8,499 nt of DNA, taken from a virus (taxonomy: Duplodnaviria > Heunggongvirae > Uroviricota > Caudoviricetes). A model generated the notes under the pieces. The model saw nothing but the letters and a program-made list of their open reading frames with translations. It searched no databases and was not told the DNA's origin. The stretch lies in the IMG/VR virus record IMGVR_UViG_2579778606_000009; one strand, 5' to 3'. A program made the translations under genes and the position numbers. Positions 1 through 8,499 of the stretch are shown here, piece by piece. Within the stretch, counting starts at the first letter, position 1. Each line of letters begins with the position of its first letter.

Positions 1-192
1 ACTCCCCGCACACAGACAACGGATAACGGCAAACAGAACACCTATTTTTCTTCACTGGATAACATGGTTGCCCAGGGCAATGTTCTGCCGGTTCTGTACG
101 GTGAAATGCGCGTGGGGTCACGCGTGGTTTCTCAGGAGATCAGCACGGCAGACGAAGGGGATGGTGGTCAGGTTGTGGTGATTGGTCGCTGA
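1..192 (+). CDS. I: Tail assembly protein I, 3' fragment (5' end lies outside the window)
   Basis: Frame 1 from position 1 reads ...NGKQNTYFSSLDNMVAQGNVLPVLYGEMRVGSRVVSQEISTADEGDGGQVVVIGR* with TGA at 190-192. This matches my recollection of the C-terminus of lambda gpI, and it sits immediately upstream of J as in lambda. No start codon is in the window. Confidence 0.8.
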   Translation, partial: TPRTQTTDNGKQNTYFSSLDNMVAQGNVLPVLYGEMRVGSRVVSQEISTADEGDGGQVVVIGR

Positions 193-210
193 TGCAAAAT
201 GTTTTATGTG

Positions 211-231
211 AAACCGCCTCCGGGCGGTTTT
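211..231 (+). other. GC-rich stem-loop in the I-J intergenic spacer
   Basis: aaaccgcc (211-218) pairs with ggcggttt (223-230) around a 4-nt loop tccg, followed by T-rich sequence. It lies between the I stop (190-192) and the J RBS ggag (241-244). Function is unknown; it could be an RNA structure modulating J translation or a weak terminator. Confidence 0.3.
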
Positions 232-252
232 ATCGTTTATGGAGCATGACGA

Positions 253-3200
253 ATGGGTAAAGGCAGCAGTAAGGGGCATACCCCGCGCGAAGCGAAGGAC
301 AACCTGAAGTCCACGCAGCTGCTGAGTGTGATCGATGCCATCAGCGAAGGGCCGGTTGAAGGTCCGGTGGATGGATTAAAAAGCGTGCTGCTGAACAGTA
401 CGCCGGTGCTGGACAGTGAGGGGAATACCAATATATCCGGCGTCACGGTGGTGTTCCGGGCCGGTGAGCAGGAGCAGACACCGCCGGAGGGATTTGAATC
501 CTCCGGCTCCGAGACGGTGCTCGGTACAGAAGTGAAATATGACACGCCGATAACCCGGACCATCACGTCGGCAAACATTGACCGTCTGCGTTTTACTTTC
601 GGCGTGCAGGCACTGGTGGAAACCACCTCAAAGGGGGACAGGAATCCATCGGAAGTCCGCCTGCTGGTTCAGATACAACGTAACGGTGGCTGGGTGACGG
701 AAAAAGACATCACCATTAAGGGTAAAACCACTTCACAGTATCTGGCCTCGGTTGTGGTGGATAACCTGCCGCCGCGCCCGTTTAATATCCGGATGCGCAG
801 GATGACGCCGGACAGCACCACAGACCAGCTGCAGAACAAAACGCTCTGGTCGTCATACACTGAAATCATCGATGTGAAACAGTGCTACCCGAACACGGCA
901 CTGGTCGGCGTGCAGGTGGACTCGGAACAGTTCGGCAGCCAGCAGGTGAGCCGTAATTATCATCTTCGCGGGCGCATTCTGCAGGTGCCATCGAACTATA
1001 ACCCGCAGACTCGGCAATACAGCGGTATCTGGGACGGAACGTTTAAGCCAGCATACAGCAATAACATGGCCTGGTGTCTGTGGGATATGCTGACCCATCC
1101 ACGCTACGGCATGGGGAAACGTCTTGGTGCGGCGGATGTGGACAAATGGGCGCTGTATGTCATCGGCCAGTACTGCGACCAGTCAGTGCCGGACGGCTTT
1201 GGCGGCACGGAGCCGCGCATCACCTGTAATGCGTACCTGACCACACAGCGCAAGGCGTGGGATGTGCTCAGTGATTTCTGTTCGGCGATGCGCTGTATGC
1301 TGGTATGGAACGGGCAGACGCTGACGTTCGTGCAGGACCGACCGTCGGATAAGGTGTGGACCTATAACCACAGTAATGTGGTGATGCCGGATGATGGCGC
1401 GCCGTTCCGCTACAGCTTCAGCGCCCTGAAGGACCGCCATAATGCCGTTGAGGTGAACTGGATTGACCCGGATAACGGCTGGGAGACGGCGACAGAGCTT
1501 GTTGAAGATACGCAGGCCATTCTCCGTTACGGTCGTAACGTCACGAAGATGGATGCCTTTGGCTGTACCAGCCGGGGGCAGGCGCACCGCGCCGGGCTGT
1601 GGCTGATTAAAACGGAACTGCTGGAAACGCAGACCGTGGACTTCAGCGTGGGTGCCGAAGGGCTTCGCCATGTACCGGGCGATGTCATTGAAATCTGTGA
1701 TGATGACTATGCCGGTATCAGCACCGGTGGTCGCGTGCTGGCGGTGAACAGCCAGACCCGGACGCTGACGCTCGACCGTGAAATCACGCTGCCATCCTCC
1801 GGTACCACGCTGATAAGCCTGGTTGACGGAAGTGGTAATCCGGTCAGCGTGGAGGTTCAGTCCGTCACCGACGGACTTAAGGTGAAAGTGAACCGGGTTC
1901 CTGACGGCGTTGCAGAATACAGTGTGTGGGGGCTGAAGCTGCCGACGCTGCGCCAGCGCCTGTTCCGCTGTGTGAGTATCCGTGAGAACGATGACGGCAC
2001 GTATGCCATCACTGCCGTGCAGCATGTACCGGAAAAAGAAGCCATCGTGGATAACGGGGCGCACTTTGACGGCGACCAGAGCGGCACGGTGAATGGTGTC
2101 ACGCCGCCAGCGGTGCAGCACCTGACCGCCGAAGTCACCGCAGACAGCGGGGAATATCAGGTGCTGGCGCGCTGGGACACGCCGAAGGTGGTGAAGGGCG
2201 TGAGCTTCCTGCTTCGCCTGACCGTGGCAGCGGATGACGGCAGTGAGCGGCTGGTCAGCACGGCCCGGACGACGGAAACCACATACCGCTTCACGCAACT
2301 GGCGCTGGGGCGGTACACGCTGACAGTCCGGGCGGTAAATGCGTGGGGACAGCAGGGCGATCCGGCGTCGGTATCGTTCCGGATTGCCGCACCGGTAGCA
2401 CCGTCGCGGATTGAGCTGACGCCGGGGTATTTTCAGATAACCGCCACGCCGCATCTTGCCGTTTATGACCCGACGGTACAGTTTGAGTTCTGGTTCTCGG
2501 AAAAGCGGATTACCGATATCAGGCAGGTTGAAACCACAGCCAGCTATCTTGGCACGGGGCTGTACTGGATAGCCGCCAGTATCAATATCAAACCGGGCCA
2601 TGATTATTATTTTTACGTTCGCAGTGTGAACACCGTTGGCAAATCGGCATTCGTGGAGGCTGTTGGTCAGCCGAGTGATGATGCATCCGGCTATCTGGAT
2701 TTTTTCAAAGGCGAGATAGGGAAAACCCATCTGGCTCAGGAGCTGTGGACGCAGATTGATAACGGTCAGCTTGCGCCTGACCTGGCTGAAATCAGGACGT
2801 CCATTACGGATGTCAGCAATGAAATCACGCAGACCGTCAATAAGAAACTGGAAGACCAGAGTGCAGCGATCCAGCAGATACAGAAGGTTCAGGTTGATAC
2901 AAATAATAACCTGAACAGCATGTGGGCAGTGAAGCTGCAGCAGATGCAGGACGGACGCCTTTATATTGCGGGTATCGGTGCCGGTATTGAGAACACCCCC
3001 GACGGCATGCAGAGTCAGGTGCTGCTGGCGGCGGACAGGATTGCGATGATTAATCCTGCGAATGGCAACACAAAGCCGATGTTTGTTGGTCAGGGCGATC
3101 AGATATTCATGAATGAAGTGTTCCTGAAATATCTGACGGCTCCCACCATTACCAGCGGCGGTAATCCTCCGGCATTTTCCCTGACACCGGACGGGCGACT

Positions 3201-3327
3201 GACGGCGAAAAATGCCGATATCAGCGGTAGCGTGAATGCGAACTCTGGGACGCTCAACAACGTCACGATTAACGATAACTGTCGCCGGAAAAACTGTCCG
3301 CGAACCAGGATGAAGGGTTGTCGTTAA
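253..3327 (+). CDS. J: Host specificity protein J (central tail fibre / tail tip), 1024-aa ORF that ends prematurely relative to lambda gpJ
   Basis: ATG at 253 preceded by ggag at 241-244. The translation [34 protein letters not shown]... is near-identical, from memory, to lambda gpJ across most of its length, including the fibronectin-like central region and ...[40 protein letters not shown].... The frame ends at TAA 3325-3327 after a non-homologous tail [16 protein letters not shown]. Confidence 0.9.
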
Positions 3328-3331
3328 AACA

Positions 3332-3727
3332 GTGGGCAAAGCTTTCCCCCGGGACTCCCGTGCACCGGAGCGGTGGCCATCAGGGACCATTACCGTCAGG
3401 GTTTATGACGATCAGCCGTTTGACCGGCAAATTGTTATTCCAGCGGTGGCTTTCAGCGGTGCCAGACATGAACGGGAGAATAGCGATACTTATTCGTCAT
3501 GCCGCCTGATAGTGAAGAAAAACGGGGCTGAAATTTATAACCGAACGGCTCTGGATAATACTCTGATTTACACGGGTGTTATTGATATGCCTGCAGGCAG
3601 TGGCGTAATGACACTGGAGTTTTCTGTATCAGCATGGTGGGTAAATGGCTGGTATCCCACAGCAAGTATCAGCGATTTGCTGGTTGTTGTGATGAAGAAA
3701 GCCACTGCAGGCATCACGATTAGCTGA
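3332..3727 (+). pseudogene. J: J C-terminal receptor-binding domain, out of frame with the main J ORF (frameshifted J 3' segment)
   Basis: Frame 2 reads (RVVV)[46 protein letters not shown]...DMPAGSGVMTLEFS...VVVMKKATAGITIS*, colinear with the lambda gpJ C-terminus (...AAFPRQRESSVDWPSGTRTVTVTDDHPFDRQIVVLP...DMPAGRGNV...VMVIKKQALGISVV). Homology in this frame begins around 3317; the ORF track assigns a GTG at 3332. A short bridging segment in frame 3 (3279-3320, ...[10 protein letters not shown]...) links the two, implying two single-base frame changes. Confidence 0.7.
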
Positions 3728-3745
3728 ATTTTATAACCCAGATAC

Positions 3746-3772
3746 GGGCGCCAGAAATGGCGCCTTTTTTAT
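3746..3772 (+). terminator. Rho-independent terminator between J and lom
   Basis: gggcgcc (3746-3752), loop agaaat, ggcgcc (3759-3764), then T6 (3765-3770). Confidence 0.6.
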
Positions 3773-3794
3773 TGCAGAAAAGCGAGAGGTAATT

Positions 3795-4394
3795 ATGCGT
3801 AAATTATGTGCTGTTATTCTGTCCACAGTAGTCTGGCTGGTCGCCGCTGGTACGCCAGCGAGCGCAGCAGAGCATCAGTCCACACTAAGCGCCGGGTATC
3901 TTCAGACCCATACTGATATGCCCGGCAACGATGACCTGAAGGGCATTAACGTGAAATACCGTTATGAATTTACGGACACGCTGGGGCTGGTGACGTCATT
4001 CAGTTATGCCATTGTAAAACATGAGCAAAAAACGCATTACAGCGATACCCGCTGGCATGAAGATTCAGTGCGTAACCGCTGGTTCAGCATGATGGCGGGG
4101 CCGTCTGTACGCGTGAATGAATGGTTCAGTGCTTATGCGATGGCAGGTGTGGCTTACAGCCGTGTTTCAACTTTTTCCGGGGATTATCTCCGCGTAACTG
4201 ACAGCAAGGGGAAAACGCACGATGTGCTGACCGGAAGTGATGACGGTCGCCACAGCAACACGTCTCTGGCGTGGGGGGCTGGCGTGCAGTTTAACCCGAC
4301 CGAATCCGTGGCCATTGATATTGCTTATGAAGGCTCCGGCAGTGGTGACTGGCGCACTGACGGTTTCATCGTGGGTGTCGGTTATAAATTCTGA
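3795..4394 (+). CDS. lom: Lom, Ail/Lom-family 8-stranded beta-barrel outer-membrane protein
   Basis: RBS gagagg (3784-3789) and ATG at 3795. N-terminal signal peptide MRKLCAVILSTVVWLVAAGTPASA|AE. The C-terminus ...VAIDIAYEGSGSGDWRTDGFIVGVGYKF* matches lambda Lom as I recall it and ends in the aromatic residue typical of OMPs. Position between J and stf is as in lambda. Confidence 0.9.
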   Translation: MRKLCAVILSTVVWLVAAGTPASAAEHQSTLSAGYLQTHTDMPGNDDLKGINVKYRYEFTDTLGLVTSFSYAIVKHEQKTHYSDTRWHEDSVRNRWFSMMAGPSVRVNEWFSAYAMAGVAYSRVSTFSGDYLRVTDSKGKTHDVLTGSDDGRHSNTSLAWGAGVQFNPTESVAIDIAYEGSGSGDWRTDGFIVGVGYKF

Positions 4395-4420
4395 TTAGCC
4401 AGGTAACACAGTGTTATGAC

Positions 4421-4447
4421 AGCCCGCCGGTTCAGGCGGGCTTTTTT
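4421..4447 (+). terminator. Rho-independent terminator downstream of lom
   Basis: agcccgcc (4421-4428), loop ggttca, ggcgggct (4435-4442), followed by a T-run to 4447. Confidence 0.65.
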
Positions 4448-4480
4448 GTGGAGTGGATATAGCAATTAAAAATCTCAGGT

Positions 4481-6832
4481 GTGCTGAAAGATTGTGCGGG
4501 AAAACCAATACAGAACTGCACTATTCAACTGAAGGCAAAGCGTAACAGCACCACGGTACTGGTGAACACGGTGGCCTCTGAAAATCCGGATGAAGCCGGG
4601 CGTTACAGCATGGATGTTGAGCATGGCCAGTACAGCGTCATCCTGCTGGTTGAAGGTTTTCCGCCTTCACATGCCGGGACCATTACCGTCTATGAAGGCT
4701 CCAGACCAGGTACGCTGAATGATTTTCTCGGTGCCATGACGGAAGAGGATGTCATGCCGGAGGCATTGCGTCGTTTTGAGGCAATGGTGGAAGAAGTGGC
4801 ACGCAACGCCGAAGCCGCCTCTCAGAGCGCAGCGGCGGCAAAGAAATCCGAAACTGCAGCGGCATCATCGAAGAACGCGGCGAAAACCTCAGAAACGAAT
4901 GCAGCTAATAGTGCACAGGCGGCAGCGACCTCAAAGACTGCATCGGCAAACTCTGCGACAGCAGCCAAAAAATCAGAAACCAACGCGAAAAACAGTGAGA
5001 CAGCCGCAAAGACGAGCGAAACCAACGCAAAGTCCAGCCAGACGGCAGCGAAAACCAGCGAAACGAATGCCAAAGCCAGTGAAACTGCGGCAAAAAACAG
5101 CCAGGCTGCAGCAGCTGAAAGCGAGAGCGCGGCAGCCGGTTCTGCGACTTCAGCAGCTGGATCAGCAACTGCTGCGGCTAACAGCCAGAAAGCTGCGAAG
5201 ACGAGTGAAACTAACGCAAAGTCCAGCCAGACGGCAGCGAAGACCAGCGAAACGAATGCCAAAGCCAGTGAAACTGCGGCGAAAAGCAGTCAGGATGCAG
5301 CGGCCCAAAGCGAGAGTGCCGCAGCCAGTTCTGCAAGCGCGGCGGCTGCTTCTGCCACTGCATCAGCTAACAGTCAAAAAGCAGCAAAAACCAGTGAAAC
5401 CAACGCAAAGGTGAGCGAAACAGCGGCTGCGAACTCAGCGAAAGCATCGGCAGCAAGCCAGACGGCAGCTAAAGCAAGCGAAGATGCAGCCAGAGAGTAC
5501 GCAAGCCAGGCTGCGGAGCCGTATAAATATGTCTTACAACCGCTACCTGATGTGTGGATACCGTTTAACGATTCGCTGGATATGATTACGGGCTTTTCGC
5601 CATCATATAAAAAGATTGTTATTGGCGACGACGAAATAACAATGCCTGGCGACAAGGTTGTTAAGTTTAAACGCGCATCGAAAGCAACCTATATTAATAA
5701 ATCTGGTGTGCTTACAGAGGCTGCCATTGACGAGCCACGATTTGAACGTGATGGCCTGCTTATTGAGGGACAACGAACAAACTACATGCTCAATTCGGAA
5801 AACCCTGCCAGTTGGGGGCGATCGTCAAATATGGATGTTCCCGAAACCGGGACTGATAGTTTTGGTTTTACCTATGGAAAGTTTGTCTGTAACGATTCTC
5901 TGATTGGGCAAACGTCAGCCATTAATATGGCATCAATTGCTGCTACAAAGTCAGTTGATGTTTCAGGCGATAACAAGTACGTGACAACCTCATGTCGTTT
6001 TAAAACAGAACGACAGGTAAGGTTGCGTATCCGCTTTGATAAATATGACGGTAGTGCAACAACTTTTCTTGGTGATGCATATATTGATACACAAACGCTT
6101 GAAATTAATATGACAGGTGGCGCGGCCTCAAGGATTACAGCGAGAGTCAGAAAGGACGAAGCTACCGGATGGATTTTTGCAGAGGCAACAATCCTGGCAA
6201 TTGATGATGAGTTAAAAATAGGATCTCAGATACAGTATTCTCCTAAGCAGGGCGGAGCAACCGTATCTGGAGACTATATTTATCTGGCCACCCCTCAGGT
6301 TGAGGATGGTTCGTGTGCATCATCTTTTATTATCTCAGGAACGACGGCGGCTACCCGCGCAAGCGATATAGTTACAGTTCCAATTAATAATAATCTTTAT
6401 AATCTTCCTTTTACGGTTCTTTGTGAGGTACATAAGAACTGGTATAAAACGCCAAATGCAGCGCCGCGTGTTTTTGATACAGGCGGTCATCAAACCGGAG
6501 CGGCTATTATTCTTGGCTTCGGTCGTTCAACAGATTACGACGGATTTCCTTATTGCGATATTGGAGGAGCTAACAGACGGGTAAACGAAAACGCATCGCT
6601 TGAAAAAATGGTTATGGGGATGCGTGTAAAATCAGATCAGTCTACGTGCTCAGTAAGTAACGGGCGCATATCCAGCGAAACAAAGACTACGTGGTCCTAT
6701 ATTCAGAACTCTGCAACCATCCGTATTGGAGGCCAGACTACAGCAGGCTTACGTCATTTATTTGGTCATATCAGGAATTTCAGAATATGGCATAAAGCAT
6801 TAACAGACCAACAAATGGCTGAGGTTATTTAA
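4481..6832 (+). CDS. stf: Side tail fibre protein: lambda Stf-like N-terminal domain, Ala/Ser/Thr-rich repeat shaft, and a non-lambda distal domain with a concanavalin/LamG-like C-terminal motif
   Basis: 783-aa ORF. Residues 1-100 (..KDCAGKPIQNCTIQLKAKRNSTTVLVNTVASENPDEAGRYSMDVEHGQYSVILLVEGFPPSHAGTITVYEGSRPGTLNDFLGAMTEED...) match the lambda Stf N-terminus from memory. The authentic start is probably GTG 4453 (VDIAIK...) in another frame, joined by a single-base frameshift at the A5 run 4468-4472. The C-terminal 430 aa are unrelated to lambda Stf and end ...GLRHLFGHIRNFRIWHKALTDQQMAEVI*. Confidence 0.85.
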   Translation: MLKDCAGKPIQNCTIQLKAKRNSTTVLVNTVASENPDEAGRYSMDVEHGQYSVILLVEGFPPSHAGTITVYEGSRPGTLNDFLGAMTEEDVMPEALRRFEAMVEEVARNAEAASQSAAAAKKSETAAASSKNAAKTSETNAANSAQAAATSKTASANSATAAKKSETNAKNSETAAKTSETNAKSSQTAAKTSETNAKASETAAKNSQAAAAESESAAAGSATSAAGSATAAANSQKAAKTSETNAKSSQTAAKTSETNAKASETAAKSSQDAAAQSESAAASSASAAAASATASANSQKAAKTSETNAKVSETAAANSAKASAASQTAAKASEDAAREYASQAAEPYKYVLQPLPDVWIPFNDSLDMITGFSPSYKKIVIGDDEITMPGDKVVKFKRASKATYINKSGVLTEAAIDEPRFERDGLLIEGQRTNYMLNSENPASWGRSSNMDVPETGTDSFGFTYGKFVCNDSLIGQTSAINMASIAATKSVDVSGDNKYVTTSCRFKTERQVRLRIRFDKYDGSATTFLGDAYIDTQTLEINMTGGAASRITARVRKDEATGWIFAEATILAIDDELKIGSQIQYSPKQGGATVSGDYIYLATPQVEDGSCASSFIISGTTAATRASDIVTVPINNNLYNLPFTVLCEVHKNWYKTPNAAPRVFDTGGHQTGAAIILGFGRSTDYDGFPYCDIGGANRRVNENASLEKMVMGMRVKSDQSTCSVSNGRISSETKTTWSYIQNSATIRIGGQTTAGLRHLFGHIRNFRIWHKALTDQQMAEVI
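5008..5385 (+). repeat. Two tandem copies of a 189-bp (63-aa) unit inside the stf shaft, within a longer degenerate Ala/Ser/Thr/Lys repeat region (about 4806-5500)
   Basis: gacgagcgaaaccaacgcaaagtccagccagacggcagcgaaaaccagcgaaacgaatgccaaagccagtgaaactgcggc... at 5011 recurs with a few substitutions at 5200 (offset 189). At protein level KTSETNAKSSQTAAKTSETNAKASETAAK(N/S)SQ(A/D)AAA(E/Q)SESAAA(G/S)S... repeats, with shorter AAKTSETNAK-type sub-repeats nested inside. Confidence 0.8.
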
Positions 6833-7113
6833 TGAAAGATATTACGTTGAAATTTGCCGACAGGGCCGACTTTTCGGCCTTTATGGAGAGTATTGGCTAT
6901 TATGATGACGAGTCGATGCAGGATGATATTCTTATTGACGTGATAGGTAACGTGTACAAAGAAACCGGAGAACTGACTGAAGATGGCGAACCGGTATGTG
7001 TTAAGGAAGACGGATATTTTGTAAACGTGCGCATCATTAATGATTCGCAAATATCGTCATTATTCGATGAATACGTGGTTGCTGTTGAGCATCAACTTCG
7101 TGGCTGGATGTGA
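6832..7113 (+). CDS. Hypothetical small acidic protein (93 aa), translationally coupled to stf; possible fibre chaperone or adaptor
   Basis: ATG at 6832 overlaps the stf stop (TAATG) with gaggt at 6821-6825 upstream. It ends at TGA 7111-7113, 9 nt before the next gene. D/E-rich, no TM or signal sequence; I do not recognise a family. It occupies the position where lambda has tfa but does not resemble Tfa. Confidence 0.55.
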   Translation: MKDITLKFADRADFSAFMESIGYYDDESMQDDILIDVIGNVYKETGELTEDGEPVCVKEDGYFVNVRIINDSQISSLFDEYVVAVEHQLRGWM

Positions 7114-7122
7114 GGAAGAAAA

Positions 7123-8163
7123 ATGGCTACATCGACAGTAATTCCTGATGACATCAAAACGCTAAAATCCGACGTTAGCAAATTAAAAAACGATCAAGGA
7201 AGCTACGCAACAAAATTATATGTAGACAGCAAAGATGAAATCGTTGGTGACTGGTCTGCTTCATGGTATCAGCAGGTATTGCCAACTAGCGGAGCTATAT
7301 TTGGGAGAAAACTCCGCTCAACTCACAGGACGGCAGGTGTTGAGGATGCGTATTGCGAACTATACCTCAAAAAATGGATAGACAGTCCAGGTAACGCAAT
7401 GGCGCGCCTTAACCTGAACGATAACGGGACAAACATTTGCTGGGACTTTACCAACCTTTATGGCGGTACGATGATTTTTCCCGGTGACAGCGGATACCTC
7501 AAAATGGGTAACTGCCTTATGTCATACAGCAAGCGTGGAAGTAACGCGCTTATTAAATTTGATTACACCGACACATTACAGATCAAATATGCCAATCATG
7601 GGTCAACCATGACATTAAACACACAGGGAACCGCTTATGCTGGTGTTACTGCTCAATTGTGGGGCAACTCCAGCCGTCCTGTTGTTTATGAAGTCGGTGT
7701 TGATGGTGGCGCTTATATGTTCTATGCGCAGAAAAATACCGATAACACCTATATGTTAAGCGTTAATGGTGCATGTCATGCCACCGCATTTAACCAGCAT
7801 TCCGACCGGGATCTGAAAGACAACATTCAGGTGATCGATAATGCAACCGACCGCATCCGTAAAATGAACGGCTATACATACACGCTTAAAGAAAACGGTA
7901 TGCCCTATGCTGGTGTCATTGCACAGGAAGCTCTGGAAGCAATCCCAGAAGTTGTAGGTTCCGCAATGAAATATCAGGACGGTGCAAGCGGATCGGAAGG
8001 TGAAGAAGGTGAACGTTATTACACAGTAGATTATTCTGGTGTTACTGGCTTGCTTGTTCAGGTAGCCAGAGAGTCAGACGACAGAATAACAGCACTGGAA
8101 GAAGAAAATGCAGAATTAAAACAAAGATTATCTGCAATTGAGGCGACGCTTGCGTCTAAATAA
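7123..8163 (+). CDS. Tail-fibre/tailspike-like protein (346 aa) with a C-terminal Peptidase_S74-type intramolecular chaperone domain
   Basis: RBS gaggaag (7112-7118) and ATG at 7123. The C-terminal about 120 aa read S227-DRDLK232-DNIQVIDNATDRIRKMNGYTYTLKENGMPYAGVIAQEALEAIPEVVG...ITALEEENAELKQRLSAIE. This matches the S-D-x-x-L-K Ser/Lys dyad motif, the GVIAQE...P.V core and the terminal coiled coil of endosialidase and T5 pb1-type self-cleaving chaperone domains. The preceding region is beta-rich (Gly/Asn/Thr/Tyr). Confidence 0.75.
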   Translation: MATSTVIPDDIKTLKSDVSKLKNDQGSYATKLYVDSKDEIVGDWSASWYQQVLPTSGAIFGRKLRSTHRTAGVEDAYCELYLKKWIDSPGNAMARLNLNDNGTNICWDFTNLYGGTMIFPGDSGYLKMGNCLMSYSKRGSNALIKFDYTDTLQIKYANHGSTMTLNTQGTAYAGVTAQLWGNSSRPVVYEVGVDGGAYMFYAQKNTDNTYMLSVNGACHATAFNQHSDRDLKDNIQVIDNATDRIRKMNGYTYTLKENGMPYAGVIAQEALEAIPEVVGSAMKYQDGASGSEGEEGERYYTVDYSGVTGLLVQVARESDDRITALEEENAELKQRLSAIEATLASK

Positions 8164-8169
8164 TATTAA

Positions 8170-8192
8170 GGGGCCGAGCGCCCCGTTTTATT
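8170..8192 (+). terminator. Rho-independent terminator after the 346-aa gene
   Basis: ggggc (8170-8174), loop cgagc, gcccc (8180-8184), followed by gttttatt. Confidence 0.55.
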
Positions 8193-8205
8193 GGGTAGGA
8201 TGAAA

Positions 8206-8499
8206 ATGGATATAACACCTTTCCTTCATGCACTTTGTGCTGTGGCTGCGCAGGTACTGGTTGGTCTTTTTACCGGAAACTGGGCTTACGGGGCGATAGC
8301 CGGTTGTACGTTCTTCATTGCTCGTGAACATACCCAGGCAGAATATCGCTGGATTGAAATGTTCGGGCATGGCAAGCGTATGAATATGCCGTGGTGGGGT
8401 GGTTTTGATCCGCGCGTGTGGGATGTGGCAAGCCTGATGGATTTTTCTGTGCCGGTGGTGGCTTGTCTGCTGGTCTGGCTGTTGGTTAATCGTGGGTGA
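8206..8499 (+). CDS. Small hydrophobic membrane protein of unknown function (about 97 aa, three predicted helices); candidate moron
   Basis: ATG at 8206 with agga (8197-8200) 5 nt upstream; alternative starts are ATG 8200 and the track's TTG 8191. Stop is TGA 8497-8499. Three hydrophobic stretches: ITPFLHALCAVAAQVLVGLF, AYGAIAGCTFFIA, FSVPVVACLLVWLLV. No lipobox, and no charged C-terminal tail of the kind holins carry. Family not recognised. Confidence 0.6.
   Translation: MDITPFLHALCAVAAQVLVGLFTGNWAYGAIAGCTFFIAREHTQAEYRWIEMFGHGKRMNMPWWGGFDPRVWDVASLMDFSVPVVACLLVWLLVNRG

Follow-up and report, generated by a model that had tools for sequence, protein, structure and literature searches.

The tail locus of a lambdoid prophage in Escherichia coli BIDMC 77

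The window considered here, a stretch of DNA of 8,499 nt, corresponds to the opening 8.5 kb of scaffold KK736427.1 (223,440 bp) in the draft assembly GCA_000692635.1 of Escherichia coli BIDMC 77, a draft from a project whose libraries were Illumina paired-end and mate-pair (PMC8981930). The window contains the tail end of a lambdoid prophage: the scaffold starts inside gene I, which functions in tail assembly, and later exits from the prophage into sitABCD. The 3′ end of gene I comes first in order and is followed from position 253 by J, the gene for the tip attachment or host specificity protein, which was recognized from its Pfam domains and by alignment. J is present as a truncated plus-strand ORF of 1024 aa at 253–3327, deposited as KDG29493.1. 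Alignment to intact relatives revealed a first patch of altered sequence at 3276–3320 (plus strand), and the coding sequence of the J C-terminal receptor-binding domain, identified by a match to PF12421, lies out of frame in frame 2 at 3317–3727 on the same strand.

A terminator-like hairpin followed by a T run was called after J, at 3746–3765 on the plus strand. The next gene, lom (3795–4394, plus strand), encodes an Ail/Lom outer-membrane beta-barrel protein of 199 aa and contains a second patch at 4012–4020, and a second terminator-like hairpin (4421–4442) separates lom from the side tail fibre gene stf. Comparison with the nearest complete genomes placed a third patch at the start of stf (4461–4466, plus strand), and the stf ORF as it is left in the window occupies 4481–6832 on the plus strand (783 aa). 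A small ORF (6832–7113) and a gene with a tail-fibre domain (7123–8163) follow. With gene I upstream and both lom and stf downstream, the locus has the synteny of a gpJ locus, as judged from the gene tables of the loci L005 and L003 and of phage PhiR47_1. A further ORF of 735 aa runs antisense through J on the minus strand (1183–3390), and most likely arises from the codon composition of J.

The frame-1 ORF of J ends at a TAA codon (3325–3327). Residues 1–1007 of its product are identical to those of an intact J protein of 1159 aa (WP_021523093.1 type), and the last 17 residues are out-of-frame junk. Homology to J resumes for 10 residues in frame 3, at about 3285–3316, where the intact protein reads GKLSANQIEG, and then passes to frame 2, which is open from 3317 to a TGA codon at 3725–3727. 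The preliminary description of this DNA had reported just such a passage of J out of frame 1, by way of frame 3, into frame 2, with a stop at 3325–3327 and homology extending to 3727, and the sequence bears it out.

Five Pfam families, FNIII-A_GpJ, Phage-tail_3, Ig_J, Ig_J_second and Phage_Tail_Tip, were found in the 1024-aa product, with E values from 1e-31 to 1e-42. The Pfam family Ig_GpJ_C (PF12421), described as ‘C-terminal receptor binding domain’, was not found in the product of 253–3327; it matches the frame-2 piece instead, at 3332–3727 (E = 1.6e-38). In an intact relative, Phage_Tail_Tip covers residues 872–1000 and PF12421 covers residues 1029–1159, so that the break falls in the short stretch between the Phage_Tail_Tip domain of the central fibre region and the receptor-binding domain. 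The relatives of the frame-2 piece in the PDB are lambda gpJ (8iyk, 8xcj and others) and ‘A8 gpJ’ (9wca), and the structure of the lambda tail with LamB places a receptor-binding Ig-like domain at the C-terminus of gpJ (PMC11101478). In the sequence as written, J is deprived of its C-terminal receptor-binding domain; this functional reading had been proposed before the domain searches, and it holds, with PF12421 confined to the frame-2 piece.

Dense patches of differences in J, lom and stf

The nearest relatives of the window are chromosomes of ST131-type E. coli, which are 98.7% identical to it across its whole length and have an intact J of 3480 nt (1159 aa; WP_021523093.1) at the same locus adjoining sitABCD. 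A base-by-base comparison with these intact relatives resolved patch 1 into seven substitutions, at 3276, 3286, 3289, 3309, 3310, 3318 and 3320, and two deletions, of 4 nt (GGTT) after 3284 and of 1 nt (C) after 3316. Together these amount to 12 differing positions within 45 nt, and 5 nt are lost overall. When the 5 nt are put back, an ORF of 1159 aa is recovered, in which Ig_GpJ_C would again be part of the J polypeptide and which carries the replacements E1008D, L1013P, G1014E, I1021D, D1024V and L1025V. The stretch of DNA that underlies the patch is identical among all the relatives aligned.

The flanks of patch 1 (1–3275 and 3321–4011) are 100% identical to the intact allele, so the sequence as deposited truly differs from that allele at the patch, and the question of chance does not arise. 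The anatomy of the patch departs from what had first been supposed. Alignment to intact J genes located the missing bases, as had been hoped, but the lesion that emerged was not the pair of single-base deletions put forward as its cause, being composed of a 4-nt deletion, a 1-nt deletion and the seven substitutions. The size of about 1130 aa previously expected for the intact protein also gives way to the 1159 aa of the intact relatives. The 407 nt of receptor-binding-domain coding sequence that follow the shift (3321–3727) are identical to the intact allele, and for this reason we see no decay elsewhere in the domain.

Two further patches, which the preliminary description had overlooked, lie within 1.2 kb downstream of patch 1, and we regard these sister patches in lom and stf as the strongest clue to the nature of the lesion. 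Patch 2 (4012–4020) consists of four substitutions in 9 nt of lom, which produce the replacements N73I, A74V and D76H; the resulting Lom variant is deposited as KDG29494.1 and has a RefSeq entry of its own, WP_032152832.1. Patch 3 (4461–4466) changes the ATG start codon of stf to ATA, so that the start is lost, and includes a 2-nt deletion and one further substitution. The longest stf ORF that remains begins at a GTG codon at 4481 and encodes 783 aa, compared with 791 aa in relatives, and the deposited Stf protein (KDG29495.1) forms a singleton cluster at 90% identity.

The three patches hold 12, 4 and 4 differing positions in 45, 9 and 6 nt, respectively, and together comprise eight transversions, five transitions and three small indels, with each patch being damaging. 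Everywhere else, apart from a diverged segment within stf, the window is 100% identical to the nearest complete genomes (1–3275, 3321–4011, 4021–4460, 4467–5538 and 6850–8499), and so are the next 4.9 kb of the scaffold, containing sitABCD (100.0%). All non-mosaic differences are thus confined to the three patches, with none in the remaining approximately 12 kb (7.1 kb of the window and 4.9 kb of flank). By a rough post-hoc estimate, uniform point mutation would yield such clustering (20 differing positions in 60 nt) with a probability of about 1e-20 or less.

Distribution of the patches and natural variation in stf

Patch 1 was absent from all 8,267 copies of J in 5,426 complete E. coli genomes; every one of these copies has J in one frame and in its canonical form, and the best match to the patch region over 91 nt is 87.5% identical and represents the canonical allele. 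Nor was an exact match to patch 1 found in 185,579 GTDB species representatives (one genome per species), in IMG/VR or in metagenome contigs. Patch 2 had no match in IMG/VR or in any complete E. coli genome, and patches 2 and 3 are both absent from the lom–stf junction of complete E. coli genomes, in which the best identity over 3950–4530 is 98.6% and again belongs to the canonical allele. A collection of approximately 15 billion proteins has exactly one contig each for the truncated J, for the Lom variant and for the 783-aa Stf, compared with 923 contigs for intact J and 963 for canonical Lom. With the protein collection added to the complete E. coli genomes, GTDB representatives, IMG/VR and metagenome contigs, no other assembly was found to share patch 1.

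A search for a second assembly of BIDMC 77 through the 131-aa ORF of frame 2 returned four contigs (L006–L009), all of which come from other samples and have the canonical sequence. Likewise, a search for sibling isolates through the closest Stf proteins found none, the proteins that are 99% and 98% identical coming from unrelated contigs. Two of the Logan contigs, L006:2315 (SRR28226758_267) and L007 (SRR5487902_261), have a fragment of the terminase large subunit fused to the J C-terminal domain at window position 3284. This terminase–J junction, considered as a candidate branch point at about 3284, is present in no complete E. coli genome and so lends no support to an artefact at patch 1; it represents an uncommon deletion or else a de Bruijn chimera.

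The one segment of the window that differs from the relatives outside the patches is of another kind. From 5539 to 6849, stf is a natural mosaic allele that has 91 substitutions (54 transitions and 37 transversions) and is diverged by approximately 7% from the otherwise identical ST131-type prophages. Third codon positions account for 64 of 86 differences, and 54 codons are changed synonymously as against 21 non-synonymously. Two natural alleles from unrelated assemblies (L010 and L011) share 77 of the 91 variants and are 99–99.5% identical to the window over 5820–6820; both have J in one frame and are canonical at patches 1 and 3. Approximately 14 variants, at 5539–5914, are matched by no locus that was compared. 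To judge from these patterns, the divergence at stf 5539–6849 is ordinary tail-fibre mosaicism, unlike the three patches.

A chimeric origin of the stf divergence from the two copies of this block in strain FDAARGOS_1281 was considered and rejected, as only 25 of the 91 sites match the second copy (L001); 41 of the 91 match either L001 or phage PhiR47_1 (L002). The N-terminal half of stf also contains a direct repeat of approximately 231 nt (4991–5221 and 5180–5410; 83–85% identical), which emerged from secondary BLAST hits and is present in relatives too. In two of the related loci (L003 and L004), RefSeq divides the in-frame 791-aa stf ORF in two: an N-terminal pseudogene marked ‘incomplete’ and, overlapping it in the same frame, a CDS named ‘phage head spike fiber domain’. 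This split of stf in ST131-type prophages is an annotation quirk and involves no frameshift.

The distribution of patch 1 bears on the proposal that translation itself mends the gene, with two successive −1 ribosomal frameshifts, near 3285–3292 and 3317–3330, rejoining the receptor-binding domain to J. Both frame changes are indeed in the −1 direction, the G-to-A substitution at 3289 creates the sequence CGG AAA AAC, similar to the slippery motif A AAA AAC, and a modest hairpin is possible in the region (z = −2.4). However, the first heptamer is G AAA AAC and does not have the form X XXY YYZ, nothing at the second shift is slippery, and the yields of two low-efficiency events would have to be multiplied. 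Known recoding sites are conserved, whereas this site occurs in one assembly only, and the window has no Rfam match and no frameshift element. Even the rejoined product would still have six substitutions in an otherwise conserved segment. Neither a slippery heptamer at each shift nor a conserved two-frame layout, as would characterize a programmed −1 frameshift, was found at this locus, and we consider recoding to be exceedingly improbable.

Equally remote is the idea of a phase-variable switch, or of diversification by a diversity-generating retroelement (DGR), acting on the receptor-binding protein. The lesion does adjoin the determinant of host range, where diversification acts in other phages. 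Against phase variation, the site has neither a tract of simple sequence nor a tandem repeat, with A5 as the longest run compared with A4 in the canonical allele, and thousands of copies of the site show no length polymorphism; the repeat tract and length variants of a contingency locus are therefore both missing. Against a DGR, the substitutions fell on G, T, G, A, T, A and C of the canonical allele and hence are not adenine-specific, the window has no template repeat, and no reverse transcriptase is present among the genes called in the 13.3 kb examined.

Origin of the patches

In FDAARGOS_1281 (NZ_CP070134.1; L001 and L003), the nearest complete genome, the I–J–lom block occurs twice in one chromosome, with no differences between the copies across J and lom. 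The copies diverge where one of them has an IS200C insertion between lom and stf (window position approximately 4450), a point 10 nt upstream of patch 3, and that copy also has a 1-nt homopolymer difference that frameshifts the tail assembly gene I. Scaffold KK736427.1 ends inside this block, the repeat itself having been observed in FDAARGOS_1281. No known branch point between repeat copies lies at patch 1 or patch 2, and no runs of N occur near the patches; both points count against an assembly artefact.

All three patches are densely packed with changes, occur in this assembly alone and are restricted to a single block, which is an exact repeat in the nearest complete genome. Our data are best explained by a local assembly or consensus error in a short-read draft, with no biological interruption of J, and we hold this to be the probable origin of patch 1. 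We favour this reading because the patches are clustered, private and noise-like and lie in a repeat-type block near a scaffold end. In such a model, the assembler or polisher, in resolving the repeated lambdoid tail block, would have produced a faulty 45-nt consensus at 3276–3320, and patches 2 and 3 would share the same origin. We infer from the sequence comparisons that the patches arose in the assembly rather than in the cell, in which case the actual prophage would most likely have a canonical J of 1159 aa with its receptor-binding domain in frame. The draft was presumably assembled with ALLPATHS-LG and polished with Pilon, and local patching or polishing is prone to fail at a repeated prophage by a scaffold end. 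Two further considerations weigh against an artefact: short-read assemblies of this sort are normally very accurate per base, and for an erroneous path of 45 nt with 12 differences to be chosen, either some reads must support it or a patching step must have been faulty.

The main competing account takes the patches at face value, with private complex lesions having recently inactivated J, altered Lom and removed the start of stf in what would be a young cryptic prophage. Each patch would then perhaps have arisen in one step, for example by template switching or through error-prone repair. The patches are, after all, present in the deposited sequence, the frame changes are unambiguous, and Illumina consensus errors as dense as these are unusual. 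Prophage tail genes are also often pseudogenised, as illustrated by FDAARGOS_1281, where the tail assembly gene beside the second J copy is annotated as frameshifted. Patch 1 itself offers a hint of a mechanism: three of its seven substitutions fall in the arms of an 11-nt inverted repeat (3269–3279 and 3317–3327), and the substitution at 3318 repairs a mismatch in this repeat, as quasi-palindrome correction would.

Set against this, three independent complex lesions in 1.2 kb, with not one single-base change in the approximately 12 kb around them, are unlike ordinary decay, and the patches are in no other isolate. Quasi-palindrome correction at patch 1 is weakly suggested at best. Because the hairpin has the same stability in both versions (−12.1 kcal/mol) and its arms are not perfectly complementary, template switching does not explain patch 1 as a whole, and we rejected it in that role. 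Gene conversion was also rejected: the novel k-mers of the patches have no donor elsewhere in the window, and searches of complete E. coli genomes, GTDB representatives, IMG/VR and metagenome contigs found none either. Overall, we consider a real, strain-private lesion to be possible but doubtful. If it is real, the prophage could still build tails, but these would be without the receptor-binding domain and unable to adsorb.

A more specific version of the same idea, that the patches are real and were made by a localized complex-lesion process striking precisely the surface and host-recognition genes of a single prophage (J at its receptor-binding junction, lom, and stf at its start), for example error-prone repair after targeted cleavage, seems to us very unlikely. 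Were it true, it would amount to an unusual disarming of the adsorption apparatus of a prophage. Of the three causes listed in the preliminary description, an assembly or sequencing error is accordingly the one that we favour, pseudogenisation has a place as a possible but private event, and recoding or phase variation is opposed by the evidence.

The break in the J gene of BIDMC 77 is of little biological consequence. Should the patch be an artefact, as we favour, then J of this prophage is normal, and three database entries are noise: KDG29493.1, labelled a ‘hypothetical protein’, the Lom variant WP_032152832.1 and the singleton Stf. Should it be real, a prophage tail gene has been privately inactivated once again. 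The wider lesson concerns the reading of draft genomes, in which a frame break composed of a dense, private patch of mixed changes, flanked by sequence 100% identical to an intact allele and close to the end of a scaffold, ought to be taken for assembly noise unless reads support it.

Several known systems provide points of comparison. In E. coli, lambdoid prophages that are cryptic or defective have tail genes with frameshifts, ordinary pseudogenes in which a structural gene likewise has a frame-disrupting lesion. However, ordinary prophage decay leaves scattered single changes that are common to clonal relatives, whereas BIDMC 77 has three dense private patches. Local consensus or patching errors of short-read draft assemblies at repeated prophages are a candidate parallel, as the patches lie near a scaffold end in a block that is an exact repeat in the nearest complete genome, are noise-like and rich in indels and transversions, and are seen in no other genome. 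With respect to J itself, the BIDMC 77 gene differs from that for the intact 1159-aa protein in that its frame is broken before Ig_GpJ_C, leaving a deposited product of 1024 aa that lacks the receptor-binding domain. In other respects it agrees with its intact counterparts, sharing its order of Pfam domains with the intact ST131-type allele (WP_021523093.1) and with lambda gpJ (8IYK, 8XCJ and 8XCK), sharing with intact lambdoid J loci the gene order I, J, lom and stf, and having a C-terminal domain coding sequence that is identical to that of the ST131-type allele from position 3321 onwards.
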